Below are positions 8,543 through 60,453 of a stretch of DNA of 64,000 nucleotides, one piece after another; within the stretch, counting starts at the first letter, position 1; every line of letters starts with the position of its first letter. Source of the DNA: a virus (lineage: Duplodnaviria > Caudoviricetes). The stretch lies in IMG/VR virus record IMGVR_UViG_3300046460_000097. One strand, given 5' to 3'. The position numbers and the translations under genes are program-made. The notes beneath the pieces were generated by a model. That model was given only the letters and a program-made list of their open reading frames with translations. It did no database searches and was not told where the DNA came from.

Positions 8543-10198
8543 ATGCAGCGATTCATGAAAATTACCGATACCCAAGACATGGTAGAAGACGTTATGATGG
8601 ACGTCGCCAAGGCTGTGGTATCCACCATGGGTCCTAATGGCAGGCTGGCACTCATCTCCGTCGGTACCAACAAGAAAGTAACCAAAGATGGTGTAACGGT
8701 TGCTCGGTCTATCAAGTTCGAAGACCCCTTCAAAGAACTGATCAACAAAGTCATCACTGAACCAGCGGTCAAGACTGACGTTGAATGTGGTGATGGTACT
8801 ACCACTACCATCCTGCTGACGGCTGAGCTGTATAGCCTGTTCAGTCAGTTCCCGGGTTACCGTGAGCAGAAGTTCATCGAGCGTCTGGGTGGTCTTCTGA
8901 TCGACGAGCTGCAGCGTATGGCTCGTGTTGTAACGGTCGGTAGCCCAGAGCTGTACCAGATGGCCCTCACGTCCTCTAACGGCGACGTAGAGCTATCCAA
9001 GGTCATCACTGACATCTATGCTCAAGCGAATGGCAAGTTCCCTGAGATCGAACTCAAGGAAGGTGTGACTCGTGCTGACAAGGTTGTACACAGTGACGGC
9101 CTGCCGGTCAAGATGGAATTCTCCAATCCATCGTTCAGCGCAACTGGTAACGGTGCCGATACTGACTTCGAACGTTATGTTCCGTTGGTAATCGACGACA
9201 ACCTGCGTTCCATGCAGCCAGATCAGGCGGTGGAGTTCTTCCGTAAGCTGTTCGACAAGTACAACTTCGGCAAGGACATTGAAGGTGTGGTCATTCCTGT
9301 ACTGCTGATTGCTCGTTCGATCGACAACAGTCTGAACAGTCTGATCATGCAGATCAACAACGTTTCGCCGAAGGTGAAGTTCATCGGCGTTCAAACCAAC
9401 TTCGGCGGTTCGGTTGGTACGTTGCTGATGCAGGACATCGCCATCATGTTGGGTGTTCCGTTCTTCAAGACGCTGGCAGATACACTGCACCAAGATGTTA
9501 AGGCGTGCACTGTTCCTCTGACTGTAGGCTCTCGTCGTTCGGTGATCCGTCCGAATGATCCGGTAACCAAGACACGTATCACTGATCGTGCCAAGGAAAT
9601 CGAAACCGAGCTGGGTACTTATGAAGCGGGCGATCGTTTCAGTATGCGTGCGAAGTTCAACGAACAACGTATGCGTAGTCTGCTTGGCGAACTGGTCACT
9701 GTGTTTGTTGGCGGTGAAACTCAGTCGGAAGTGAAAGAACGTCTGGACCGTTTCGAAGACGTGGGCAAGGCAGTTAAGTCGGCGTTGATTAACGGCATCC
9801 TGCCAGGCGTCGGTTCTGCAATGATTACTGCCGGTCAGTTCGTCTTCGGCGCACTGGATGAGCAGGAGCTGTTGGACTACCCTCCATTTCAGAAGATCGT
9901 TGACGTTATGGAGAAGATCACTTTCGCTCAATTCTTCTTGTTGATGAAGGGGATTGTTTCGGAAGACCAGATGCTCAACATCAAAGCAAATGTCATCGAC
10001 ATGGACTGCCCAGAGCCGATCCGTGTGCTGAACTTGGCAACTGGTGAATGGGGTACTCCGGCGGCGCTGGGTATCTACGATACTGCTTATGCGTCGATCA
10101 CTGCGCTGAAGGGTGGTCTGCAAACGGCCAAGATCTTGGCTAACTTGGATAGTGTTCTGCTTGGCGATAAATCGTCCGCAGTACAAATCCAGGACTAA
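8543..10198 (+). CDS. groEL: Phage GroEL-like chaperonin
   Basis: 551 aa; STMGPNGR, TKDGVTVARSI, GDGTTT nucleotide-binding motif, VFVGGETQSEVKERLDRFED, GILPGVG. Confidence 0.95.
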   Translation: MQRFMKITDTQDMVEDVMMDVAKAVVSTMGPNGRLALISVGTNKKVTKDGVTVARSIKFEDPFKELINKVITEPAVKTDVECGDGTTTTILLTAELYSLFSQFPGYREQKFIERLGGLLIDELQRMARVVTVGSPELYQMALTSSNGDVELSKVITDIYAQANGKFPEIELKEGVTRADKVVHSDGLPVKMEFSNPSFSATGNGADTDFERYVPLVIDDNLRSMQPDQAVEFFRKLFDKYNFGKDIEGVVIPVLLIARSIDNSLNSLIMQINNVSPKVKFIGVQTNFGGSVGTLLMQDIAIMLGVPFFKTLADTLHQDVKACTVPLTVGSRRSVIRPNDPVTKTRITDRAKEIETELGTYEAGDRFSMRAKFNEQRMRSLLGELVTVFVGGETQSEVKERLDRFEDVGKAVKSALINGILPGVGSAMITAGQFVFGALDEQELLDYPPFQKIVDVMEKITFAQFFLLMKGIVSEDQMLNIKANVIDMDCPEPIRVLNLATGEWGTPAALGIYDTAYASITALKGGLQTAKILANLDSVLLGDKSSAVQIQD

Positions 10199-11996: not shown

Positions 11997-12089
11997 GATA
12001 AGGACATCTTCAGACCTACATTACCTAGGGGTAGCAAAGACGCTCGTTTAATTGTGGTATTTTCCACGTTAGGTAAAAAGGGATCGAAT

Positions 12090-12644
12090 ATGTTAGAAGC
12101 ACTGAGAAGGACGGAGGATCACGATGGACTGATAACTAATAATACCGAGAGCAAAAGACTTAAGTATTTCAAGTACGTAATGAACGACGAGTTTGTGAAT
12201 GCTTTCATGGCTTCCATGGGTGACATCCACAAACTGCAAGAGTTCGTCTACGCTATCGATGTCTTGGTAGAAATTAGCAGAAGTCGTGACTTCCCTTCAG
12301 GCCGTTTGCTGAACAACGTCGACATCACTCAGAAGGCAGCATTCACACTCGGACAGCTGGCCCGGTGGACACGCGACAAATCGTTGTTCGGTTGCCAAGT
12401 AACACCCGACACAGCCGAACTCGTCGACGAATTTTTCAGTTATAACTATCCCGAGTTATTCGGTGAGTTTTTCAACAAGACCAAGTTCCCGTTTGCAGCA
12501 TTTACATTAGACGGAGTTTGGTACCAGTTGATGATCGTCAGAGAGTTCTCCGCCCTGCGCGAGTACGCAGCAGTGAAACTCATAAGCAGTCAGTCAGATA
12601 TCGCCGTCTACATTCCGTTCCTTAAATCCCGGCTAGGGCTTTGA
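12090..12644 (+). CDS. Hypothetical protein
   Basis: AGGGA RBS before ATG 12090. Confidence 0.7.
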   Translation: MLEALRRTEDHDGLITNNTESKRLKYFKYVMNDEFVNAFMASMGDIHKLQEFVYAIDVLVEISRSRDFPSGRLLNNVDITQKAAFTLGQLARWTRDKSLFGCQVTPDTAELVDEFFSYNYPELFGEFFNKTKFPFAAFTLDGVWYQLMIVREFSALREYAAVKLISSQSDIAVYIPFLKSRLGL

Positions 12645-12747: not shown

Positions 12748-13686
12748 ATGACAATCCAAGAACAGGCGCCACAGGTTATCACCGAAGAGGAAATGCTTAA
12801 GCTTGCTCCGAATGCCAGTAAAGAGACAGTTAATCTTGCCTCAAACGGAGATGCTTACGTCTGGCATGAAGGCAAGGAGGGTTACCAAAACCTTGGGCAC
12901 GTTTCTACCTTGAGACCAACTATTAGCGACGGGGCTCATACCAACGAGATTCCGGTCTCTGACGTTTTGCCTGAAGCATCGTACCATTCAACACCTGCTC
13001 ATATTCCTTCTGCGGAAGAGCAGCGTGAGGCAAAGATCGTTAACAAAGCACATCCTTCACTGGATGATGTGTCTACATTGCTGGAAGGGGCCTTGCAGAA
13101 GCTTGAGGGCGAAGAAAGTGATGCTGCTTTCAAAGCACTCGATGCCTTGAAGAAGGTAAGGGTTGATCTGCGTCGTAAGCGTCGTAATACCTGGCTGCGT
13201 TGGTTGCTCTTCTGGGCGATCGTGGGTGGTGTGGTTTACGGTCTGTATAAGTGGATACCTACTCAGGTGGTGTCCGGTCGTTATACCGTACCAAAGGTAT
13301 GTTCCGCTCCTTTCGGTCCCGGGTTGATTCAAGGTATGCGCTACTACAACTATACCTACAAATCGTTGTTCGGCGTTCACTTTACTCTGGAAAGCACTGT
13401 ACGGGAAGAGACCGACGTCACCAAGAACGGGCAGGAGTTCACTATCTTTGGCTTGTCTCCTCGTAATGAGGCTGCAACCGAGGAAGAGATGGCGCTGGCT
13501 GACAAGGTATTGAAAGCTGCCGAGGTAGAAGTGGAAGGTGTTCCTAAACCACCTAAAGGTAAATGGTGGCGTATAAACGTTTGGTCGAGTGACAAAGGTA
13601 CTCAGTGGATGAAACCAGCCGAGCTGTATTTGTTCGCGTCTGAGAAGTACACCACGTTGGTTGCGTACAAAGACTTCTGCAAATGA
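12748..13686 (+). CDS. Bitopic membrane protein
   Basis: AAGGAG RBS; RRKRR followed by WLRWLLFWAIVGGVVYGLYKWI. Confidence 0.8.
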   Translation: MTIQEQAPQVITEEEMLKLAPNASKETVNLASNGDAYVWHEGKEGYQNLGHVSTLRPTISDGAHTNEIPVSDVLPEASYHSTPAHIPSAEEQREAKIVNKAHPSLDDVSTLLEGALQKLEGEESDAAFKALDALKKVRVDLRRKRRNTWLRWLLFWAIVGGVVYGLYKWIPTQVVSGRYTVPKVCSAPFGPGLIQGMRYYNYTYKSLFGVHFTLESTVREETDVTKNGQEFTIFGLSPRNEAATEEEMALADKVLKAAEVEVEGVPKPPKGKWWRINVWSSDKGTQWMKPAELYLFASEKYTTLVAYKDFCK

Positions 13687-14204
13687 AGGGCATCCAACTT
13701 TACGATGGTAAAAATGTCCGTATGCTGGCGTATACGGGACGGGTTAATTACAAAGAGGCTTATGAGATGAACAATCGTTATCCTAACGTCGGTACGATCG
13801 GTCATGTTGATCACAGTCGTCACACGTATTCGATTCTGCCGGAACTGGTGGACTGGAACAACGGGCTGGTTCGTGTGGGTGGTCGTATCATTCATGATCT
13901 CCGTGTTAAGGAAGAAGTTCAGCCTGAACACATGATCATCAACCCACGCACAGTTTCTGTGATGAACGAGCTCTATATGCAGTCGGCCCACACCGATATC
14001 GGCAAGAGTGTGTTCTTCCAAGACCAACGGTTGCTGGAAGATCGTCGTTCGGTGATTCCTACCAAGCAACAGATCGCCATCGACATCATCTACAACCGTC
14101 GCCTGAAACAAATGCAGGCAATGCGTAACGCGGTCGTTGTGAAGTACGACGAAGAACAAATCCAGGAGCTGTTGAATGGACAAGGTATTAAAGACGGTAC
14201 GTAG
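13683..14204 (+). CDS. Hypothetical protein carrying an EF-Tu G1-like decapeptide (alternative start 13767)
   Basis: NVGTIGHVDH at 13785-13814; no other GTPase motifs seen. Confidence 0.7.
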   Translation: MKGIQLYDGKNVRMLAYTGRVNYKEAYEMNNRYPNVGTIGHVDHSRHTYSILPELVDWNNGLVRVGGRIIHDLRVKEEVQPEHMIINPRTVSVMNELYMQSAHTDIGKSVFFQDQRLLEDRRSVIPTKQQIAIDIIYNRRLKQMQAMRNAVVVKYDEEQIQELLNGQGIKDGT

Positions 14205-14703
14205 TCGACTGCTTACAACGGGCCAACTATTCCACATCAGTTTCAACGGGGCTCTAGCGGGCCTGTGGACACCGGGTACTCAAGCAGGCTTCGATGTACC
14301 GGGTGAACACGAGGACAGCTCCTGGGCTTATCCAGAGCCTCCTATGGCTGCAATTGCGGTAGCGCCTAAGGTGGAAGACTGTTTCCGTGGTGTCTTCCCC
14401 AATGTGGCGAAGTTCTTTGAGGTCGAGAAATATCCTCATATGAACTTCTACGTTTATCGTCCTGTGTTCGAGGGTGATGAACGAGTGGTTACCCCACAAG
14501 TCCTTACTAAGGATCGGTGGGTTTGGGACGCTCATGTTACTCATGAGCATCGCATCATTGATCCCGTGGAGATGGAACTGGTGGGCGAGGTAGAGATTAT
14601 GAACTGTAACTCCTCACCTACCATGCAAACTCATCCCTACGGATACATTGGTTATCCAAAGGAGTCTGTTGGTCCTACGACCATCAAGTACCGTTGGCTT
14701 TAG
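14176..14703 (+). CDS. Hypothetical protein, possible ADP-ribosyltransferase-like fold
   Basis: LFHIS ... AIAVAP..EDC ... FYVY ... VWDAHVTHEH pattern (inference). Confidence 0.55.
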   Translation: MDKVLKTVRSRLLTTGQLFHISFNGALAGLWTPGTQAGFDVPGEHEDSSWAYPEPPMAAIAVAPKVEDCFRGVFPNVAKFFEVEKYPHMNFYVYRPVFEGDERVVTPQVLTKDRWVWDAHVTHEHRIIDPVEMELVGEVEIMNCNSSPTMQTHPYGYIGYPKESVGPTTIKYRWL

Positions 14704-14711
14704 GAGGTACC

Positions 14712-14960
14712 ATGAGTACAACTGCAGCGATTCTCACAAAGGTAAGCGACAAGTTGGAAGCAGCGTTTAACAAAGGCGCTGATGGTGGTACTTACGCTTC
14801 ATTCGAGGAACTGCGTTCCGCGTTCCTTGCTGAACTCGTCAATGACCTGCCCCAAGACAAAGCACCTACCTTTGTTGACCGTGCACTTATGCACATTGAG
14901 CACATGACTGTTCGGTTCTCCACCGCCCCTAAGCGGAGGGTAACCAATGAAGGACAATAA
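14712..14960 (+). CDS. Hypothetical protein
   Basis: AGGAGG RBS before ATG 14712. Confidence 0.7.
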   Translation: MSTTAAILTKVSDKLEAAFNKGADGGTYASFEELRSAFLAELVNDLPQDKAPTFVDRALMHIEHMTVRFSTAPKRRVTNEGQ

Positions 14961-15480
14961 CAATCCGGATCAGGTCGTCATTGCTCGTGAGTTGTACGAC
15001 GAGCTAACGCGGTACGCTGATAGTTTTGCCTACATGCAGAAGGAAGGTGCGTTAACGGTAGTTGAGGGGAACGCTACACTGAAACGTATGTCGCGTATCA
15101 AGTGGCACGCGCGTAAGTTCAACAAGCAACTCCGAGTTGAGCGCAAGGTAAACCTAGCCTTGGAATTGGATCGGGTTCGTCAGAGCAAGAAGGCGTTGTT
15201 TGCCTTACTGACGGTGTGTACCGGGAAGCAAGTGTGGCTGCAAGTGCATCCGATTCCAACTGGCGAGACCGTTTACATTCCGGTCACGTTACTGGGTCGA
15301 GGGGTGCGGTACAAAGAGTTCGCACTTATAAAGATGAAAGGTGGTGAAAAGGTTGAGAAACCAATTCACATGTTACTCCCCGAATTACCGGAAGGGTTTC
15401 ATTACCACACGTTGGGTCGCTATCACGGTTTGGCCATTAAACAACCACTGTTTAGCGGTGCCGTTGGCGAACTAAAATAA
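14947..15480 (+). CDS. Hypothetical basic protein
   Basis: GGAGG RBS, operon context. Confidence 0.7.
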   Translation: MKDNNNPDQVVIARELYDELTRYADSFAYMQKEGALTVVEGNATLKRMSRIKWHARKFNKQLRVERKVNLALELDRVRQSKKALFALLTVCTGKQVWLQVHPIPTGETVYIPVTLLGRGVRYKEFALIKMKGGEKVEKPIHMLLPELPEGFHYHTLGRYHGLAIKQPLFSGAVGELK

Positions 15481-15510: not shown

Positions 15511-16101
15511 ATGATCTCCAAAGGCATTTGCTTTGATATGGATAGCTTCCCAATGCACACCGCAGGGGAAAGGCAGTTCCGGGTATCAGCTCAAACGGGT
15601 GAACTCTTTAAGGGCAGGATTCCATTTGCCCGCTTTGGTCATCCGGCACCGTTGATTCGTCATGGGCTTAACCACCCTATCGAGTTCTACTGTGTAACTC
15701 TATCGGAACCTGGGATCCTGATAGCACTAAGTGATGACCGGCAAACACGGTATTATTGGATCACTCCAAGCGGTCGTCGTTATCCCTACGTTGTAGATTC
15801 GCCCTCGCACAGCTTTGAACAGGCGTGGGATAGTTTGTTTGTGAATCTCCTGCTGGATGATCGGCAATATGCGATTGGGTTGTACAATCGTATTAGTCAC
15901 ATTTTCATCGAGTACATCAAGGAGAAAGAGAAACCCGTACAAGTGGCTGTTGACGGTCACTGGAATCGTGAGCGTGTTATGGCCGTACTGGAGTGGGATG
16001 AAAGCATGGGGGATCGTGCTGTACAAGTCACCCTGTCTGATCGTGCTCCAGTTCAAGTTCCCTTGGCAGATCACCCTTTGGCTGCCTTGCTTCGCAAATA
16101 A
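15511..16101 (+). CDS. Hypothetical protein, tandem paralog of 16128-16679
   Basis: Shared HSxExA..LF..L..DDR..A...Y and HPL motifs. Confidence 0.7.
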   Translation: MISKGICFDMDSFPMHTAGERQFRVSAQTGELFKGRIPFARFGHPAPLIRHGLNHPIEFYCVTLSEPGILIALSDDRQTRYYWITPSGRRYPYVVDSPSHSFEQAWDSLFVNLLLDDRQYAIGLYNRISHIFIEYIKEKEKPVQVAVDGHWNRERVMAVLEWDESMGDRAVQVTLSDRAPVQVPLADHPLAALLRK

Positions 16102-50689: not shown

Positions 50690-53600
50690 TTACACAGTCA
50701 CAGATGGACCAGTTGGCTTACCGTTGCTGTTGATCTGGAGCAGTTGCTCGTGGATCGCTTTCAGCAAGGCGTTCTGTTGTTCACCGAGCGGTTGCATTAC
50801 TGCCGCAACTGCTTCACCCACTGGCTGCTGTTCCACTACAGGGGATTCCTTATAGCTCGGACCAGGCAGAGGCAGAGGTGTTTGATTAGGCTGAGTAACC
50901 TGATCGTAGGTTTTAGGCGCACCAGGCGACTTACCGTATCCTTCTGGCATCGGTTGTTGCTGAGGCGCTCTAGGAGCACCACCGTTAGGCAGAGGAAGAC
51001 CAGTGTAGCCATCAATCGATGCAACAGCGTTACCATTCACCAGCGGTTGCTTGGCATTCTCAGCAGCAGCCTTAATCATTTCTGGCGTAGCTACTGTCGA
51101 GGTGTCAGGTGGAGCAGAAGGCATGCCACTTGGAGCGGCTTCTGCCTGAGGTTCTGCACCTGTGCCACCTGGTAGTGTGTCTTGCCCGTTCTCTTGGTTT
51201 GCACCCGCCGCTGCAGCATACTTATCCGCTGCCTCTTTGGACTTAAACCCAACGTGCACGTGACCACCAGTAGCACCCGCTGAAGCTTTACGGTATTCGT
51301 TGATGATCAAGAAGTCAGCAGGCACCATACCGGCAGAACGAAGGATCTCGTTTACCACACCTACCGCTTGGTCACTTCCGTTAATACCGTTGGTCAGTGT
51401 GAAGTCCAACGCCAAGCCTACAGCATGCTTAGAGTTAGGCTTCTTGTTACGGTGATAAGCGTCGTTCAAAGCAGTGAACTGCTTGAAGTTCTGCACACGC
51501 GATTGAATGATGCTCGCCAAACGAGTGATAGCCGGATGAGACGGACCACCAGCAATGGTTTCAGACGACTTAAGCCGTAGACCGCCGTTGTTAATCCCTA
51601 CACCACCACCTACCAGTGAAGTACCTTCACCACCACCGCCACCATAACTACCGCCATCTGGATTACCACCCGGAGCGATCATGCTTGGGGGAGTTCCGTA
51701 AGCACTGCTGTTACGCAGGCCACCGCCAGGGGCTGCACCCATAGAAGGTGTGTTACCACCGATCATAGGGGCCGAACCACCACCCGCACTGCTACCGCCA
51801 CCACTTGGAGCCCCGCCACCGTACATCGATCCAGCTGTCTGAGAAGCCGACGCGTTGGTACCCGCCGCACTTTCTTCATCCGCCTTCAACGAACCACTCT
51901 GAAGTTGCTTCAGGTAGTCGGTGTAGAGCGCAAAGCGTTTAGGCATGCCAGGCAGTTGGTTACCACCGTTCAAGCCTGTAGCCGCAGTACCGAAGTCACC
52001 GGACTGTGTAATGCTTTGCAACAGCTTACTGTTCTTGTAGAAGTTGACAGCAATAGCCGCCATTACGTTTGGATCGTTGGAAGCAAGCTCTGGTTTGTTC
52101 TCCAGATCAATGCCCAGCTGCTGACCGATCTTCGCATACTTCTCGCGACCTGTCAGTTGAACGAATCCTCGACCACGATACTTCCAGCCATCGCCGGGAG
52201 CTTTGTTACCGAGAGACTGCCCTTTACCACCGCCATAGACCGTGTTCGCAATAGCCACTTCGCCAGCCTGAATCAACTGACGAGCCTGATCAATGTTGGT
52301 GACTTCCTTAAAGGTCTTCACCAAGTTCTCAGGGCTAGTGTACTTCATGTTTTCAACAGTTTTGCTGTAACCACCTGTTTCGTAGTTGGTCAGCGCCAGC
52401 ATCTCAGCGATTGCACGAGGGTCAGTGAAGCCTTGTTTCAACATCTCGCGAATGATCAACTGTTCTGCTAGATTCTTCGGAACCTTCACGCCGTGGTCAT
52501 CACCACCGTCAGCAGGGCGAACCCCGCTCAAGTCCAAGTGACTAGTATCGCTACTGCCAGTCAGAGGTTTGTACCCGTACTTGTTCTCAGGCGTCTGATA
52601 AGCACCCAGTTGGTTATAGGTGTTACCAGTACCCGCACCACGAGTAGTGTTGGTCCCGTACATGCCGCCCAGCGCCACATCACGAGTGCTCTTCGCCTGA
52701 TCTGCAGTTTGGGTGTTAGCCTGCTTCTCAGTGAAACCACCGCCCGTCTTGTGAGGGGAGATCGTGTTAGCCCACGCTTGTGTACTGGTTTTACCCGCTT
52801 CGCCTTCAGGGTCTTTCATCTTCGCAGTAACGGAAGCTTCACCCAGCAGATTCAACATCCGTTCGACCTTAGCCGACTTGTCTGGGGAAGTACCGTCTTT
52901 AAACGGAGACGCACGCACGTTCCAGATAGAGGTAGAAGTGTTAGAGAACCACCCCGAGATCTCTACCTGAGTTTCGATCAACTTACGAGCGATTTCATAA
53001 CGAGCGGTTACCGACAGGGTCTTCCAAACTGCGCCCGGCAAACCTTTACGGTAGGCTTGCATTGCACTGATGTAACTAGACATGACAGGAATGAAACGAT
53101 CACGGAACCAGAGGCACCAGTCGTCTGCATCACCCTTGTCCAGTCGGAAGGACTCTTTGAACAAACCAAAGATGTCACCCACCAAACCCTTGAACTCGAT
53201 CTTGTCACCAGAGATGACGAACAGGGATTCGCAATAACGCTCAAGCTTCAGCACCGCCTCAACACGCCAGAGCAGATCTTGGTCGTTACCGTAGCACGCC
53301 AACCGGATACCCGTCAGCAGGTCAACAGGACGATCATCAGGGAGCATGTCCTTAATGAACACTTGAGCAACCGCAGGAGCCACTTTGTAGGTGGTGTTCA
53401 GCTGTTGCAATTGTCCGTCGATAGCTGCCAAACGTTTCTTGGCTTCTAGACGTGCGCCACCCGGATCTTCCTCGTTAGCAAACGCTTTACGAGGATCGGC
53501 GAGTTGTGCTTCGAGCTTGGCCTTCTCTGCCTGCAATGCACCAGCACCCATGGCGGTGACTACAGTACCCTTATCCTCACCTTCAGTTTTGCGGTCAATG

Positions 53601-56600
53601 TAAACGCGCAATTCTTCCAGCAAGTTGTTGACTTTGATGACGGTGATCTTCTCGCCCATGATAGGCGTATCAATGTCGATCTTGGCAACGATAGAGTAAG
53701 GATAGGGCATTACCCCTGCCAACGTCTGGTGAGTCTGCTTGGCAACCTTCAGCACGTCCTGTGTCTTCGCGTCGTCGTAGTCCTTCAGGTTCTTGATCTT
53801 CACCACATCCAAACAGGCCATGTAGGTGAGGAACACCGGCTTGAAACGACCGTTGAACCATGAGTAGATGTCGCCCATTTGTTTCTTGTTACCGGGCTCC
53901 GTCACGAACATTTGAAGAACTTTATCCAGAGGAGCGCTCTTCGACAACGATGCACGAGCATTACCGATGACCACATGGTCAGTCAGCATTTCCTCGATTT
54001 GCAGGATCTTCTTGGCCAGATCAGAATCAGGATCACTGATACCGTATTGCGCCATCCGGATTTCGTACTGCTTACCCGAACCACGCGTAACGTAGCGATA
54101 GATCCCGTAGCCAGCCGCGGCGATACCCAGCGCAGCCAAGGTGTAAGGGTTGAACAACAGAGGAGCCAGCATACCGGCACCTGCGGTTAATCCACCCCAA
54201 GCCATCCCTGCACCAGTAACGGCAACAGCACCTAGATCGACACCCACCACACCCGCAACAGCAGCAGCTGTTTGATAGGCACCGTAAGCTGTAGCAGCAT
54301 CTCCAGCGAACCCTGCTACCTTATCGATAGCTCCGCCTTCATCGATGACACCCGAGCTTGCCAGCGCATCTGTGGCCATGCCTACGGCCATACCAGCACC
54401 GAGCCACTTACCGCCACGCATCACACGACCGCCAGGAGTCTTGCGCTCAGCCGAACGAGCAGCCTTCTCTTCCTTGGTACGCTTCTTCTTCCGCAGGGTA
54501 TCTGTAAAGTCACCCATGCCCTCACCCAGACTCCGTGTCTTCAGTAAGGTAAAGATCCCCTTGGCCACAGCTGTAATGCCTGTAGCGATCATTGGGAGCG
54601 TTCTGATACCGATGGTGCTGAACCGACCCAGACTTTTCCACCACGACTTGGCAAAGAACTTCGTGAGGAAGGAAGTGACACTGAAGAGACCACCGGTGAT
54701 AGCAGCGATACCGCTACCAATCAAACCAAAAAGACCCATGCCGGCTTTCTTCTTGGCTTCTTTACCCGGACCACCAGCACCCAATGCACCTGCGATGTTG
54801 ATGATGGACTCGTCACGCTTCGTAGCCAGTGCTTCCTTAGCCTGAAGTGCCAAGTCTGCAGCCGAGTTGAGACGGAGACCTTCATGGCCTTCACCTTTAC
54901 CCATACCTGCCGCGCGCTGGTCAGCGAGTTTGGAGAACTCACGGAAAGTACCCGGACCGTTCTTGAAGCCACGGTCTTCTTCCTCACGGCGAGCGATCTC
55001 CTCTGGCGGAACCTCGTTAGGAGGAGTTACCGGCATAGGTGGAACGACAGGCGCTACCACCGTAGGAGCAGAAGCTTCAGGAGGCGACGTAGGAAGGCCC
55101 TTAGGGCGGAACACCAACGGAGGTGTAGGCTTGGATGCAGCCACTGGTTTAGGTACCGGAGCCGAGGCTACAGTTGCTTCTACCGGTGGAGTCACAGCCG
55201 ACGGAGTAACAGGCGCTACAGGCGCAGTAGCTGCAGTCGATTCAACTGGAGGAGGTGGTGCCAGTTCCTCATGGGCATAACCCCAGTGCTTCAAGAGCAG
55301 GTGATAGATACGATCCACCGAGTTCACGATAGGAGAGTAGTCAGCCTTGAAAGCGCCAGCCACTTTGTCCTTAGCACCCGCCATGTGAGGAGCGGCCTTC
55401 GCCTTAACCTTCGCCATGAAGTCCATGCTGAGTTTGCCAAACCGACGAGAAGCTTCGCCCAGCTTGTTAACACTCACACCCATGGAAGTCTTCAGACCAC
55501 GATCATAGTCTTCCTGAGTAATCAGTACTTGACCATCTTTATCGTAAACAGGCCCGTCGATCTCGTTCCAACCGTTGATCTGTACCGCGTAGCCGTCTTC
55601 CCCACGCTTCCAGTATTCACCCAATGCAAACTTGGTGCCTGCCAGAATTGGAGACTCGTCCCCTTCCTTGTACACGTCCATCTGGTAGAAGCGGGTGACC
55701 AGCTTATTCTTCAGCGCAATAGCTCGACCGAATGGATCGATGAACTTAAACGCCTTGATAGCCAGATCTCGTACTTTACTCAGCCCATTGAGGAACACTT
55801 CCTTGTTCTCTTTGGTGAAGAGTTTAGCCGCTAAACGACGAGCGCCGATAAAGACTTTGGTAGCGTTATCCCACACACTGCCGCTGATCTCTTTCCAAGA
55901 GGTAATGATCGTGCTCTTGGTAGCGTCGTAGTAATCCTTACGCTGCAGCTTCCATGCCTCCAGAATCGGTTGGTCGGCACCTTCTTCATAAAGGTCTTCC
56001 GAGTCCTCTGCTGCACGGGCATTCGCCATACTGCGGATCTTGCCGTAAGCCAGAGCTGCCGCGGCACCACCACCGATCAGCGCTGCCGCTTTAGGGTTGT
56101 GGAACGCCATGGTAGCCAAGCCACCCAACAAGCCGCCCAAGATCAGAGGTTCGTGGTCCAGGAGTTTGTCGACCCCATTGTTGAACATGTCCTTAAAGTT
56201 GGTTTCACGCAGACGATCGATGATGCCACGTTTTGTAGCGTTAACTTCTTTCTCTTCCTGACTCGATTCCCGCTTGCCGGGTTGGTTGTTGAGCATGCGA
56301 GTCAGGATATCGTTGCGAGTACCTGCCAGCGTGATCAGTTCGGCCACACGCTCGTTGAGGTCGGACACACCTTTGCTCAGAGGAGCCATGTCCATCGCTT
56401 GGTTCATCGGGTGGTTTTGACCCAACCCAGCGATAGCAGCCTTCAGATCACCAATACTGCCTAGCGATTCTGTCAGCTTGTCCATCCCTTGCACTTTGAT
56501 GCCATCAGGACCGACCTGAGAGTCGTCAGACGCTCTTTTAGGATCCGTGATAGGGCTCAGGCTCGGGTTGTGGTTACCGCCGAATGCACGCGACCTCAGA

Positions 56601-58807
56601 GGCACCAAGTCTTCTTCAACAATAGCAGGACGGTATTCGGGATTAGCGATGAAGTTGCTCATCGTGTTCCAGAACAGATCCATGTTGACATCATCGCGAC
56701 CGAACTCGTCAGTAGTGATCAGACCAGCTTCCTTCAAAGCGTCGTAGCTGCCGTTGCTTTTCAGCAGGTCCATCCGTTTGGTCATGTCAGGAACAATGTT
56801 CCCCAGACTACGGTTAGCATCCGCTACACCCACAACTTTTGCACGGGCCTTCTCGGTAGGCAACATGCCAGCCATGCCGATACGGTCGAGGTCAGTACCG
56901 TCCCTGAACTGGGTAATGTGGTCGTCGGTGATGTCGAACTCAGCCTTCATTGCACGGCGGATCTCGGCAGCAATCTTCGGAGAGGTGATTCCCTTCTCAT
57001 CCAAGTTCATGAAGCGATAAGGAACGAACGCCTTGTTCTGGTCAGCGTCCTTAATCAACTGGAGCGACAGAACCTTCTTGGCCTCAGGGCTCAAACCGCT
57101 GTTACCCGCGATGCTATCTGCAAGGTTGTTAGCTGCTTGGGCGGCTGGCGCGAACTGGTTGTGGTCCAACACCAAGTTAGTAGCACGGGCTACCTTCTGT
57201 TGATGGGTATTGAAACGGCTTCGGGTATAGTCGTAAGACCACGCCTTCATTCCGTCATCACCAGTACGGAACTTCTCGATCGACAAGTGAATCTGACTCA
57301 GCCATTGCGGCAGGATCTCGTTCAGTGTGCGGTCGCTGCGACGAGTCCACAGTTGCTGCTCGTGCATGTCCTCCAGTGTACGCCCTTCCAGCGAGTAGCG
57401 AGAACCGCTGCTGTTCCAGGTGTTGCTGTAAACGTGACCCAGTCCTTTGTTAGCTGTGCTCTTCAGGGTCTTGAGGATGTTCCACTCAATCTTGCTGATT
57501 GGCTTCTTACCGGCCGGCAGGGTTGCGAGGTATTCATCATAGTCCACGACTTCGTTGTATTCGAAGCCGCCGTTGTAGAACTCGGACAAGCTGTTGGCTA
57601 AGCCTTCAGCGTTACCCGTTGCATAGGACGCAACGTTACCCAAGTCTTCCAAACGTTTGTAAGCGTCTTCAGCCCACTTGGCAAAAGCAGGGAATTGCTT
57701 CTTGAACTTGCCGAGGTATTCTTGACCTTTGTTCGACTTGAACATACGCGGCAGGTTGTTGAGGAAGATCCCCGCTGCTGCGTTACCCAGCATGTCGCCC
57801 ATGTTGATAGGCGCGCCTTCGGTCATCTCAGAAGCCATGCGCAGACTGCTGGCTACGTCAGCAATACCACCTACCGCACCTTCGCGAGCATCCTTACCGA
57901 AACGCTCGTTAATGAAGTCAGAGATACCACCGAACTTGCTCTTGACCGTACTGAACACTTCATCACGCAAAGCTTTACGAACAGCCTGACTGTGAGAGGT
58001 CTTCTCGTAGTCGGACATCTTCGAGAACTTGCTGATGTCTTTCAATTCAGCGATGAGACGGTGCTGTGCAGCTTCCTGGAACTTGAAGTACTTAGCCTGA
58101 GTCAGGTAGGTACGAGTCGCCACGTTCAAATGCATGGCATCTGTACGAGCCTGCACACGACGCTGATGATCGAGCAACTGTTCCAACAACTGGTTACTGC
58201 GAACGACCGTACGGCTGATGGCGCCGATACCAGCGATCTGGCGACCACCAATCTCGTTCATCATGCCAATCGTACGATCGGCCACCATGGTCATCGTATC
58301 GCGTTCGAGCAGGGAGTTAGCGTCTTCGTTCTGAAGTTGTGCTGCTACCTCTTCCTGACTAACGTCGCCACCCATGGAGGGAGCATCAGGACCACTCGAA
58401 TAATCGCGCTTTTCCCAGTCACTGAAGTCGTGTTCTGAGAACTTATATAGCCCATCGGAGATTTTATTAGGGGTGCCTTTAGCTAACTTGTCCGCACCAC
58501 GTTTTGCCAGGTACTGGAGATCCTGTACAGTTTGATAACTGTCCCCTTTAATTTCCTCCATGACCTCTTTGCGACGATCATTGAGTTGCTGCACGTTACT
58601 GAAGGCACTCAGCCAGGTGTTAGGCAGTGCCATCTTGAGTGTGTTGATTTTGGCGTCAGTGTCGCCGACGGATTTGCTGACGATACCGGACAAGAAACCG
58701 GTAGTGAAGCTACGGATAAACCCTTTCTTAGGCTTATCGAAATCGTCATCAAAGTCTAGATCGCCACCGAAGGGATCATCATCCCATTTGAAATCATCAT
58801 CGGCCAT
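50690..58807 (-). CDS. Giant tail (tape-measure-like) protein with GH19 lysozyme and M15-type peptidase domains (phiKZ gp181-like)
   Basis: 2705 aa; ETGG..EN.KY, GDGWKYRGRGFVQLTGREKY (GH19); SKHAVGLALDF...GGHVHV (M15); head-to-head with RNAP beta'. Confidence 0.85.
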   Translation of the reverse strand: MADDDFKWDDDPFGGDLDFDDDFDKPKKGFIRSFTTGFLSGIVSKSVGDTDAKINTLKMALPNTWLSAFSNVQQLNDRRKEVMEEIKGDSYQTVQDLQYLAKRGADKLAKGTPNKISDGLYKFSEHDFSDWEKRDYSSGPDAPSMGGDVSQEEVAAQLQNEDANSLLERDTMTMVADRTIGMMNEIGGRQIAGIGAISRTVVRSNQLLEQLLDHQRRVQARTDAMHLNVATRTYLTQAKYFKFQEAAQHRLIAELKDISKFSKMSDYEKTSHSQAVRKALRDEVFSTVKSKFGGISDFINERFGKDAREGAVGGIADVASSLRMASEMTEGAPINMGDMLGNAAAGIFLNNLPRMFKSNKGQEYLGKFKKQFPAFAKWAEDAYKRLEDLGNVASYATGNAEGLANSLSEFYNGGFEYNEVVDYDEYLATLPAGKKPISKIEWNILKTLKSTANKGLGHVYSNTWNSSGSRYSLEGRTLEDMHEQQLWTRRSDRTLNEILPQWLSQIHLSIEKFRTGDDGMKAWSYDYTRSRFNTHQQKVARATNLVLDHNQFAPAAQAANNLADSIAGNSGLSPEAKKVLSLQLIKDADQNKAFVPYRFMNLDEKGITSPKIAAEIRRAMKAEFDITDDHITQFRDGTDLDRIGMAGMLPTEKARAKVVGVADANRSLGNIVPDMTKRMDLLKSNGSYDALKEAGLITTDEFGRDDVNMDLFWNTMSNFIANPEYRPAIVEEDLVPLRSRAFGGNHNPSLSPITDPKRASDDSQVGPDGIKVQGMDKLTESLGSIGDLKAAIAGLGQNHPMNQAMDMAPLSKGVSDLNERVAELITLAGTRNDILTRMLNNQPGKRESSQEEKEVNATKRGIIDRLRETNFKDMFNNGVDKLLDHEPLILGGLLGGLATMAFHNPKAAALIGGGAAAALAYGKIRSMANARAAEDSEDLYEEGADQPILEAWKLQRKDYYDATKSTIITSWKEISGSVWDNATKVFIGARRLAAKLFTKENKEVFLNGLSKVRDLAIKAFKFIDPFGRAIALKNKLVTRFYQMDVYKEGDESPILAGTKFALGEYWKRGEDGYAVQINGWNEIDGPVYDKDGQVLITQEDYDRGLKTSMGVSVNKLGEASRRFGKLSMDFMAKVKAKAAPHMAGAKDKVAGAFKADYSPIVNSVDRIYHLLLKHWGYAHEELAPPPPVESTAATAPVAPVTPSAVTPPVEATVASAPVPKPVAASKPTPPLVFRPKGLPTSPPEASAPTVVAPVVPPMPVTPPNEVPPEEIARREEEDRGFKNGPGTFREFSKLADQRAAGMGKGEGHEGLRLNSAADLALQAKEALATKRDESIINIAGALGAGGPGKEAKKKAGMGLFGLIGSGIAAITGGLFSVTSFLTKFFAKSWWKSLGRFSTIGIRTLPMIATGITAVAKGIFTLLKTRSLGEGMGDFTDTLRKKKRTKEEKAARSAERKTPGGRVMRGGKWLGAGMAVGMATDALASSGVIDEGGAIDKVAGFAGDAATAYGAYQTAAAVAGVVGVDLGAVAVTGAGMAWGGLTAGAGMLAPLLFNPYTLAALGIAAAGYGIYRYVTRGSGKQYEIRMAQYGISDPDSDLAKKILQIEEMLTDHVVIGNARASLSKSAPLDKVLQMFVTEPGNKKQMGDIYSWFNGRFKPVFLTYMACLDVVKIKNLKDYDDAKTQDVLKVAKQTHQTLAGVMPYPYSIVAKIDIDTPIMGEKITVIKVNNLLEELRVYIDRKTEGEDKGTVVTAMGAGALQAEKAKLEAQLADPRKAFANEEDPGGARLEAKKRLAAIDGQLQQLNTTYKVAPAVAQVFIKDMLPDDRPVDLLTGIRLACYGNDQDLLWRVEAVLKLERYCESLFVISGDKIEFKGLVGDIFGLFKESFRLDKGDADDWCLWFRDRFIPVMSSYISAMQAYRKGLPGAVWKTLSVTARYEIARKLIETQVEISGWFSNTSTSIWNVRASPFKDGTSPDKSAKVERMLNLLGEASVTAKMKDPEGEAGKTSTQAWANTISPHKTGGGFTEKQANTQTADQAKSTRDVALGGMYGTNTTRGAGTGNTYNQLGAYQTPENKYGYKPLTGSSDTSHLDLSGVRPADGGDDHGVKVPKNLAEQLIIREMLKQGFTDPRAIAEMLALTNYETGGYSKTVENMKYTSPENLVKTFKEVTNIDQARQLIQAGEVAIANTVYGGGKGQSLGNKAPGDGWKYRGRGFVQLTGREKYAKIGQQLGIDLENKPELASNDPNVMAAIAVNFYKNSKLLQSITQSGDFGTAATGLNGGNQLPGMPKRFALYTDYLKQLQSGSLKADEESAAGTNASASQTAGSMYGGGAPSGGGSSAGGGSAPMIGGNTPSMGAAPGGGLRNSSAYGTPPSMIAPGGNPDGGSYGGGGGEGTSLVGGGVGINNGGLRLKSSETIAGGPSHPAITRLASIIQSRVQNFKQFTALNDAYHRNKKPNSKHAVGLALDFTLTNGINGSDQAVGVVNEILRSAGMVPADFLIINEYRKASAGATGGHVHVGFKSKEAADKYAAAAGANQENGQDTLPGGTGAEPQAEAAPSGMPSAPPDTSTVATPEMIKAAAENAKQPLVNGNAVASIDGYTGLPLPNGGAPRAPQQQPMPEGYGKSPGAPKTYDQVTQPNQTPLPLPGPSYKESPVVEQQPVGEAVAAVMQPLGEQQNALLKAIHEQLLQINSNGKPTGPSVTV

Positions 58808-58833: not shown

Positions 58834-60453
58834 ATGAAACCCACGAACCTTACGTTACTGGACTTTAACAAGATTGTACCGGGTGTTTATAAACCCGTTA
58901 CGTCCACTGACGCGTTTGAAGGCATGACCCAGAACCTCAACGACGAGGGGCTGTATTCCATCGAGATCTTTGGTAAGTTGGGCAGCAAAGAGCGCGACGA
59001 AACCGAAGCGTACATTGATACCAAGTTGGATATTTTCAACCCGACGTACTTCGGGGCACTGGCTCAAGTTAAGGGTCTCTACCTCGGAATTCTCAAAGGG
59101 ACGGAATACGCGGTATGGGATCCGGAGACCAAGGATTTCATAAAATCCAACCTGCTGGAAGGCGAGACTGGGTTCAGTTTCTTTATTAAGCACTTTAACA
59201 AGTTGACACCGTCTACCACCGATTCCTATAAACGGAAACAACGGGTAGCCTTGATCAGCCGTTTCAAGCCAGTGGCGCTGGCGCCTAAGGTATTGGTGCC
59301 GCCTGCTGGCCTGCGCGACATCGAGTTCCAGCCTAACGGGGTTCCTGTTGAGCCTGAGATCACCGAACTCTACCGCAAGCTGTTGTTCCGTACTCGCGTA
59401 GTATCGTTGAGCAGCAACGGTGAAGATTCTGAGAACCCTCTGTACGATACTGTGCGTTGGGGTTTGCAGAACTCTTATAACGAAATCGACCAGTACATCT
59501 TCAGCCTGCTGGACGGCAAGGGAGGTCTGATGCAACGCCGGGTTTCTACTCGTGGCGTGGTGTCTGGTACCCGTAACGTTATTACCGCGCGTAAGGTCTC
59601 CAGACCGAATCTGTTCCAGACCAACGGGGTTGACCCTAACACGACCGACATCGGGCTGTATCAGGCTCTCCTGAACTTCCAGTACGTCTGTATCCATGCA
59701 CTCCTCACTCGCTACCTGGAAAACATCTTCACTCCGGGTTCACAAAGTGTGAAGTTGGTGAATACTAAAACGCTGGAGTATGAATATGTTGAGGTGGCAC
59801 CTGCTGTCGTCGAGAAATGGTCAACGGCTACGGGCCTGACCAAACTCTTCAACGGGTTCGGTAACAGCCGTCTGCGTTCCAAGCCTATTATGATCAGCGG
59901 CCACTATCTGGCACTGGTTTACGATGATGGCACTGACGTTTGTGTCCTCAACGACATCAACGACCTGCCAGAAGGTAAGGACAAGAAACTGGTTACTCCT
60001 ATCACGTATATGGAGTTGTTCTACCTGTCCTGTCACAAGACCATCATGGAACAAGTGACACAGCAGACTCGTTACCCCGTAATTGGTATCGGTTCGATTG
60101 TACCGGCTAAGGTTAACCTTCTGACTATTGAAGGCGCCAGCACTCGGAACATTCGTACCACTGATTGGGATATCAAGGAAACCTGCACTCGCTACCCGCA
60201 CAAGACTGACAGTCCTGATTACTTCGACGCCATGTCGGTTGACCCTACTCGTGAAGCCGGTTACGACTCCGACCACGACGGTGACCAACTGAACAGCAAC
60301 AGCGTCTGCGGTGAAGACAGCAAGGCCCAAGTACATGACCTGCTGGGCAAGCGCGAATACTACATCAGTGGTAGCGGTCGTTTCCTGTATGACCCTGTCA
60401 ACGAACCCATTTTGTTTATGCTGAAGGCCGCCACCAGCGGTATGGAGGAATAA
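58834..60453 (+). CDS. rpoC: Virion RNA polymerase beta' subunit, N-terminal/catalytic part (phiKZ gp180-like)
   Basis: EGLYSIEIFG, VLVPPAGLRD, GKGG..R, R.VI motifs; catalytic DxDGD as DSDHDGD. Confidence 0.9.
   Translation: MKPTNLTLLDFNKIVPGVYKPVTSTDAFEGMTQNLNDEGLYSIEIFGKLGSKERDETEAYIDTKLDIFNPTYFGALAQVKGLYLGILKGTEYAVWDPETKDFIKSNLLEGETGFSFFIKHFNKLTPSTTDSYKRKQRVALISRFKPVALAPKVLVPPAGLRDIEFQPNGVPVEPEITELYRKLLFRTRVVSLSSNGEDSENPLYDTVRWGLQNSYNEIDQYIFSLLDGKGGLMQRRVSTRGVVSGTRNVITARKVSRPNLFQTNGVDPNTTDIGLYQALLNFQYVCIHALLTRYLENIFTPGSQSVKLVNTKTLEYEYVEVAPAVVEKWSTATGLTKLFNGFGNSRLRSKPIMISGHYLALVYDDGTDVCVLNDINDLPEGKDKKLVTPITYMELFYLSCHKTIMEQVTQQTRYPVIGIGSIVPAKVNLLTIEGASTRNIRTTDWDIKETCTRYPHKTDSPDYFDAMSVDPTREAGYDSDHDGDQLNSNSVCGEDSKAQVHDLLGKREYYISGSGRFLYDPVNEPILFMLKAATSGMEE

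Follow-up and report, generated by a model that had tools for sequence, protein, structure and literature searches.

An EF-Tu-derived peptide conserved on a phage accessory protein that lacks a GTPase domain

We analysed a stretch of viral DNA of 64,000 nucleotides (hereafter the window), in which PHROG matches revealed virion proteins, a long tail-fibre protein, a GroEL-like chaperonin and a split RNA polymerase beta subunit (58834-60453). The latter shares 69.6% identity with its counterpart in Pseudomonas phage EL and 62% with those in the Erwinia phages Joad and RisingSun. Copies of P0001, the accessory protein studied here, that are identical or nearly so were found on contigs of 164-218 kb, and soil and rhizosphere metagenome contigs from several studies contained the window stretch at 95-99% identity. 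Taken together, the PHROG matches, the EL-like polymerase, the contig sizes and the soil and rhizosphere contigs assign the window, as judged from its sequence, to an uncultured EL-like jumbo phage of soil and rhizosphere, the host of which is probably a soil gammaproteobacterium. A megablast search with 4 kb against GenBank phages returned no match, and there was no RNA dataset among the listed holders of the stretch. The largest open reading frame in the window (50690-58807, minus strand) spans 2705 amino acids.

The gene for P0001 lies in an island of four small genes. As phage EL runs from gp149 straight to gp150, the segment of the window between the homologues of these two genes, with the gp150 homologue at 15511-16101, has no counterpart at this place in EL (Table 1). 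The family to which P0001 belongs shows a shared gene order, being located downstream of the phage GroEL gene and directly after the EL gp149 homologue in the window as well as at the loci L005, L007 and L104; in L007, Cpn60 was found upstream of the P0001 homologue. A hydrophobic stretch in the EL gp149 homologue looks like a membrane helix. The sister phage L104 is ~92% identical to the window at the DNA level up to the ATG at 13683 (L104:2980) and unalignable beyond it, and its version of the P0001 gene is only 27% identical, against the 91% of the protein encoded just upstream. We read this abrupt break as a cassette swap at a hot spot, of the kind typical for arms-race genes. At the junction after the gene (14176-14184), about 290 extra bases encoding a 108-aa protein occur in a related 81-kb soil contig (X2) and in P0004-P0006, which suggests that the 3' end of the gene is an insertion hot spot as well, with last residues that vary between variants. 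Further upstream, 12054-12644 (plus strand) encodes a 196-aa protein that is the likely counterpart of EL gp148, given the gene order and a shared C-terminal ending. At E 0.009, which does not reach the cut-off, its residues 166-188 weakly match the S-A-L-R...Y-I-P segment conserved in ribosomal protein S12 (PF00164), and EL gp148 has no such segment. This match is probably due to chance; otherwise, it would constitute a second look-alike of a translation protein, 1 kb from the EF-Tu motif described below.

Table 1. Features of the accessory-gene locus and its surroundings, in coordinates of the window.
Feature	Position	Strand	Remarks
Phage GroEL-like chaperonin	8543..10198	+	phrog_5725, E 2e-122; 43% identical to EL gp146; synteny anchor for the family
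EL gp149 homologue, left border of the island	12748..13686	+	35% identity to gp149, E 6e-30; 91% over 221 aa to L104
Variable four-gene island	13683..15480	+	missing from phage EL, where gp150 directly follows gp149
Accessory gene, P0001	13683..14204	+	start overlaps the upstream stop (ATGA); 23 family members
Family motif R-x-L-x-Y-T-G-R-x-x-Y, aa 13-23	13719..13751	+	alignments A1, A2, A4
EF-Tu-like stretch, aa 24-50	13752..13832	+	aligns with EF-Tu 3-29 (N-terminal arm, strand beta-1, G1 loop) by BLASTP, phmmer and profile versus PDB
Exact EF-Tu decapeptide N-V-G-T-I-G-H-V-D-H, aa 35-44	13785..13814	+	followed by Ser-Arg in place of the Walker Gly-Lys
Beta-meander P-E-x-[IV]-x-W-x-x-G-L-x-x-V-G-G-R-[IV]-[IV]-H, aa 53-71	13839..13895	+	conserved; forms the core of the domain specific to the family
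D-R-R-x-V-I-P-[ST]-[KR]-x-x-I, aa 120-131	14040..14075	+	conserved; inside the C-terminal helical part

The accessory gene encodes a protein of 173 aa. We place its start at the ATG at 13683, because this codon overlaps the upstream stop, because the M-K-G/S-I N-terminus that is kept across the P0001 family and the motif R-M-L-A-Y-T-G-R-V-N-Y both lie upstream of 13767, and because homology with the sister phage breaks at 13683. The preliminary description had the gene begin at 13767, which corresponds to Met29 of P0001 and is 84 nt too far downstream. P0001 carries all four family motifs, namely L-x-Y-T-G-R, N-V-G-T-x-G-H-x-D, P-E-W-I-Y-W..G-G-R-I-I-H and D-R-R-x-V-I-P (alignment A4), and the invariant blocks of the last two define a family-specific C-terminal domain. 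Within the beta-meander, G61, V65, G67 and R68 are invariant (alignment A4); H71, D120 and R121 add, along with R68, to the invariant polar residues of the family.

We found the decapeptide of P0001 to be identical at 10 of 10 positions to residues 14-23 of bacterial EF-Tu (tufA/tufB), and to be followed by S-R-H-T where EF-Tu has G-K-T-T, as the preliminary description had stated. In a BLASTP comparison with Salmonella EF-Tu (sequence taken from a database record), 14 of the 27 residues of the wider stretch were identical (pairwise E 1e-6) and nothing else aligned. Searching the PDB with phmmer, we obtained 44 matches to P0001, of which 43 were EF-Tu chains (E 0.003-1.4), and a profile of the family matched EF-Tu chains only (E 1e-5 to 3e-3, profile positions 3-35), followed by eIF2-gamma at 0.095. 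A tblastn search with P0001 likewise matched the EF-Tu-like stretch only. Hence, BLASTP, phmmer and profile comparison all trace this segment of P0001 to the N-terminus of EF-Tu, in line with the earlier suggestion of a tuf-derived fragment. A chance origin, already deemed unlikely at that stage, is ruled out by a probability of ~3.6e-13 per position (a rough figure from assumed residue frequencies) and by a control search of IMG/VR, where the reversed peptide gave 0 matches versus 45 non-EF-Tu matches for the peptide itself.

The earlier designation of P0001 as a non-GTPase likewise held. The Walker A pattern G-x4-G-K-[ST] is replaced by G-H-V-D-H-S-R-H, with Ser-Arg-His standing for the Gly-Lys-Thr of EF-Tu. 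Neither G3 (D-x-x-G) nor G4 (N-K-x-D) occurs in the 173 aa, which, unlike EF-Tu, comprise none of the G2-G5 motifs, no domains II and III, and an unrelated C-terminal domain. No Pfam domain was found in P0001 at E<=10, GTP_EFTU (PF00009) included, and the best PF00009 score among the 23 family members was E 0.12. The string AHTDIGKS (aa 102-109) fits the PROSITE pattern [AG]x4GK[ST] and was considered as a second P-loop, yet it is not kept in the homologues and is attributed to chance. It is extremely improbable that P0001 is a translational GTPase, degenerate or split, that retains GTP binding either by itself or together with the product of another phage gene. Such an enzyme would account for the G1-like sequence, and a relative in Vibrio phage 150E35-1 (P0089) does keep G-K-S and E-R-G-I-T-I; the Walker Lys and Thr are nevertheless absent from P0001, along with G3 and G4, and we found no PF00009 match in four sister genomes (93-100% complete, each with one copy of the motif) or in the nearest record, indicating that no G domain is supplied in trans.

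Structure prediction provided weak models. The mean AlphaFold2 pLDDT for P0001 was 42 with 9 sequences and 55 with 23. In the weak model obtained with 23 sequences, residues 31-55, including the motif, scored below 50, the strands at 56-72 reached 53-65, and the C-terminal helices at 94-164 reached 54-78, mostly above 70. The low values at the motif are compatible with a flexible arm and no proof of one. A search of the ESM Atlas by features gave no usable match.

Homologue searches showed that the peptide is kept throughout the family. An exhaustive HMMER search, which covered 1.84 billion representatives with no word index, recovered five true relatives of P0001, all with N-V-G-T-V-G-H-[VI]-D-H; two further matches, P0007 and P0011, are long repeat proteins and were judged to be false positives upon inspection. 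A profile search yielded 23 family members, 24-40% identical to P0001. All 22 full-length members keep N-V-G-T-[IV]-G-H-x-D (alignment A4), and conservation of the motif columns is 96% across the 23 rows, excepting two I/V positions and the last His, which is replaced by Y, W or I in four members. Since the family consensus has Val at the position of EF-Tu Ile17, exact identity with EF-Tu is not needed. At the position of the Walker Lys, the family has R, L, T or K, and at the preceding Gly position S, E or G. The EF-Tu motif stands before or after L-x-Y-T-G-R-x-x-Y, with the order swapped between subfamilies, and one subgroup that does not have the L-x-Y-T-G-R motif still has the EF-Tu peptide. 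In a divergent relative from a 232-kb phage (L102:2956-3468, plus strand), L-R-Y-T-G-R-V-N-Y and N-V-G-T-I-G-H-V-D-W-G-R are kept and the C-terminal part is different, suggesting that the N-terminal module is separable from the rest. As the profile and pattern searches were seeded partly on the motif, they are biased towards motif carriers, a bias that is limited by the exhaustive search and by a second seed pattern, G-G-R-I-I-H, which recovered divergent members.

Codon usage pointed to selection at the protein level. Across nine DNA copies, 2-4 synonymous codons are used at each of the ten motif codons. Upon comparing 360 motif codon pairs among these copies, we counted 181 synonymous and 26 non-synonymous differences, all 26 of them I/V, and silent sites in the motif are thus saturated. 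Their free variation indicates that selection acts on the peptide and rules out selection on the DNA or RNA. Overall, these alignments show that the EF-Tu segment is kept by purifying selection on the protein, with the decapeptide conserved amid diverging flanks, the pattern for which the preliminary description had proposed to look.

The same peptide recurs on other phage proteins. Using a degenerate DNA pattern for the decapeptide, we found 88 loci in IMG/VR, of which 33 are EF-Tu genes of full length, 10 are EF-Tu genes that are truncated or frameshifted, and the remaining 45 are other ORFs. With the motif masked, these 45 formed 22 clusters, or ~20 families when two likely frameshifted EF-Tu singletons are subtracted, and the peptide lay at their N-termini, in the middle or at the extreme C-terminus. 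As a control, the equally conserved G3 decapeptide of EF-Tu gave 65 loci in IMG/VR, all of them real or broken EF-Tu and 0 in other ORFs. Among 185,579 species genomes, we found the form in which Arg follows the motif 6 times, mostly in EF-Tu paralogues, and this form, the one tested, is nearly confined to phages. The peptide is thus portable, shifting its position within the P0001 family and sitting on ~20 unrelated phage families, and this presence, combined with the selection on it, means that the peptide very probably has a job.

Two of the proteins containing the motif belong to PHROG families of 'unknown function': phrog_12626, represented in Erwinia Machinavirus phages by a protein of 109 aa (e.g., QVW55748.1), and phrog_27465, with ORF27 of Aggregatibacter phage Aaphi23 (YP_003955.1, 59 aa). 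P0001 matches the former over 27 residues (E 3e-4) and the latter over 23 (E 4e-3), within aa 24-50 in both cases; true members match these profiles end to end, which P0001 does not. All three hence share the EF-Tu beta-1/G1 peptide on unrelated scaffolds, and in the two PHROG families, unlike in P0001, the loop is still followed by an alpha-1-like helix. The motif ORFs of temperate phages are placed within nin, replication or head modules, one of them being fused to a YbcO/HNH-like domain, and we found no neighbour gene common to the motif families beyond lambdoid synteny genes. In two lambdoid-type viral contigs (L038:3050-3634, minus strand; L020:1198-1723, plus strand), a copy of the EF-Tu N-terminus occurs between NinB and RusA, either joined to a YbcO/HNH-like protein (phrog_131) or encoded immediately before it. 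Another frame, of 82 codons (L073:6238-6486, minus strand; ~73 aa from the first Met), combines the EF-Tu peptide with a C-terminal SEC-C-type zinc motif (C-P-C-x-S-G-K-K-F-K-K-C-H-G) and adjoins the gene for a head maturation protease. The protein of Vibrio phage 150E35-1 mentioned above (CAH9016584.1, L146:2504-3223, 239 aa) starts with H-V-N-V-G-T-I-G-H-V-G-H-G-K-S and has its E-R-G-I-T-I string, which resembles switch I, downstream of a long insertion; the protein seems to stand midway between a true G domain and the peptide alone. A match in Moraxella phage Mcat7 was set aside as a genuine host fusA-tuf stretch inside a prophage record.

These data bear on the idea that the peptide is a neutral relic, i.e., a scar left by recombination, the 5' end of a tuf gene captured recently, or a gene-restoring att arm inside tuf. 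It is true that tufB adjoins tRNA genes that phages use for integration, and that the N-terminal arm of EF-Tu has been retained in full by some versions from temperate phages. A relic is nonetheless very improbable in view of the invariance of the motif among such distant homologues with saturated silent sites, and of the G3 control, which uncovered no such relics. To our knowledge, EL-like jumbo phages are strictly lytic, and the motif ORFs of temperate phages are located away from integrases, with none found beside them; an att-site arm that restores a split tuf was therefore rejected, both for the window, as that of an EL-like jumbo phage, and for the temperate phages. The preliminary description had left a choice between a mimic or decoy and a recombination scar. 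The first half of this choice stands insofar as a selected, EF-Tu-derived copy is present in 22 of 22 full-length homologues, and the invariant motif with its saturated silent sites removes the second.

What the family keeps is strand beta-1 and G-H-x-D-H, and what it has lost is the nucleotide-binding Lys/Thr. In ribosome-bound EF-Tu, Asp21 of the G1 loop sits in a pocket that the 23S rRNA forms with G2655, C2658 and G2659, and the Rhs toxin TreTu ADP-ribosylates this same P-loop residue (PMC9825190). Together, these points favour the reading of the segment as a portable linear copy of EF-Tu. Tentatively, and at a little under an even chance, we propose that P0001 is a non-GTPase accessory protein with an arm that displays a selected EF-Tu copy, acting as a short linear mimic towards a reader. 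The N-terminal arm, probably flexible, would present strand beta-1 together with the first half of the G1 loop, and its outward-facing residues (the equivalents of EF-Tu His19, Asp21 and His22) would be offered to a partner that normally reads that part of EF-Tu. Candidates for this partner would be the sarcin-ricin loop of the ribosome or an EF-Tu-directed protein of the host or of a defence system. The mimic would occupy, divert or exploit such a partner, while the conserved C-terminal domain would supply the family's own activity. From the sequence features, we infer a decoy function in this broad sense. Among EF-Tu-targeting factors, Lit, which the preliminary description had named as a candidate, fits poorly as the reader, because its cut site G59-I60 is outside the motif. 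Similarly, we rejected the type IV Thoeris caspase, which cuts EF-Tu after R45/R59 and thus also outside the motif. TreTu was rejected as a reader since it needs folded EF-Tu and helix D, being specific for the folded, GTP-bound form and modelled to contact that helix (PMC9825190). EF-Tu makes up 6-10% of the proteome (PMC13581612), such that a simple competitive decoy would be swamped.

The main rival to a linear mimic, which we consider rather unlikely, is that an exapted fragment serves an intrinsic role in the fold or chemistry of these proteins with no imitation of EF-Tu, for example as a His-x-Asp-His metal or anion site together with Arg68, His71, Asp120 and Arg121. These four residues belong to the many other invariant polar residues in the family, which would suit such a site, and in several phage families G-K-[ST] and the helix behind it have been retained, forming a continuum with real P-loop modules. 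Furthermore, N-V-G-T-I-G is a buried strand in native EF-Tu and hence invisible to a reader of the folded protein, and the conservation of these beta-1 residues suggests packing. Burial is no less compatible with a reader that recognises EF-Tu while unfolded or nascent, or with an intrinsic structural role. One fold-specific role is, however, hard to reconcile with the presence of the same decapeptide on ~20 unrelated scaffolds at N-terminal, middle and C-terminal places, a portability that argues against an intrinsic role. The swapped order relative to the neighbouring family motif, the unpacked state of the motif in the (weak) AlphaFold2 model, and the fact that the phosphate-binding residues are the very ones lost point in the same direction.

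A special case of mimicry would be a ribosome-directed tag, in which G-H-x-D-H docks on the sarcin-ricin loop in the manner of G1 of translational GTPases and thereby brings the protein to the GTPase centre or shields the site. The conserved residues do form the His-x-Asp signature that is specific to translational GTPases and includes the Asp21 of the rRNA pocket, the nucleotide-binding residues are dispensable in the family, and the motif is fused to varied cargo, including the YbcO/HNH-like domain and the SEC-C zinc motif. We regard such docking as improbable all the same, for a disordered 10-mer would have to act without the remaining GTPase surface that positions G1 on the ribosome, and blockage of the site would also harm translation of the phage.

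Returning to the reading of a linear mimic, we consider it possible, well short of an even chance, that it extends beyond P0001, with a portable 'EF-Tu tag' of ~10-14 residues occurring in many phage lineages. This tag would consist of the outward half of the G1 loop and its leading strand, would not bind nucleotide, and would serve as a bait or address for one conserved host reader, i.e., an EF-Tu-directed immune or modifying factor or the sarcin-ricin loop. If true, it would represent a previously unrecognised class of host-peptide mimicry in the conflict between phages and bacteria. A selected, phage-specific G1 copy on ~20 unrelated proteins would imply a factor that reads the peptide, and the identity of this reader could reveal a new axis of defence or counter-defence or a novel means by which proteins are directed to the translation machinery. 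Because the motif is short, testable as a peptide and present in cultured phages (Aaphi23 and Erwinia phage pEa_SNUABM_9), the question is open to experiment now. Full-text searches of the literature found no description of the phage motif, nor any phage example of a copied host translation factor peptide.

EF-Tu recurs as a point of contention between phages and bacteria, as seen for Lit, type IV Thoeris, Avs7, TreTu and Q-beta replicase. In the exclusion system of phage T4, Gol, a segment of the capsid protein, binds domains II-III of EF-Tu and Lit cuts EF-Tu at G59-I60 (cited in PMC13581612). Similar to the case described here, this conflict between phage and host is centred on EF-Tu and a short phage peptide is the active element of the Gol system; by contrast, the P0001 peptide copies EF-Tu itself, and a region other than the Gol and Lit sites. 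TreTu is comparable in that the exact loop copied by the phage is a target in bacterial conflicts, with Asp21 exposed (PMC9825190). It differs in being a T6SS effector that is not known as a phage defence, and we found no link between TreTu and the phage of the window. Lastly, eukaryotic viruses mimic short linear motifs of their hosts, and mimic proteins of phages include Ocr. The P0001 family would resemble these cases in that a host recognition element has been copied onto an unrelated viral protein.
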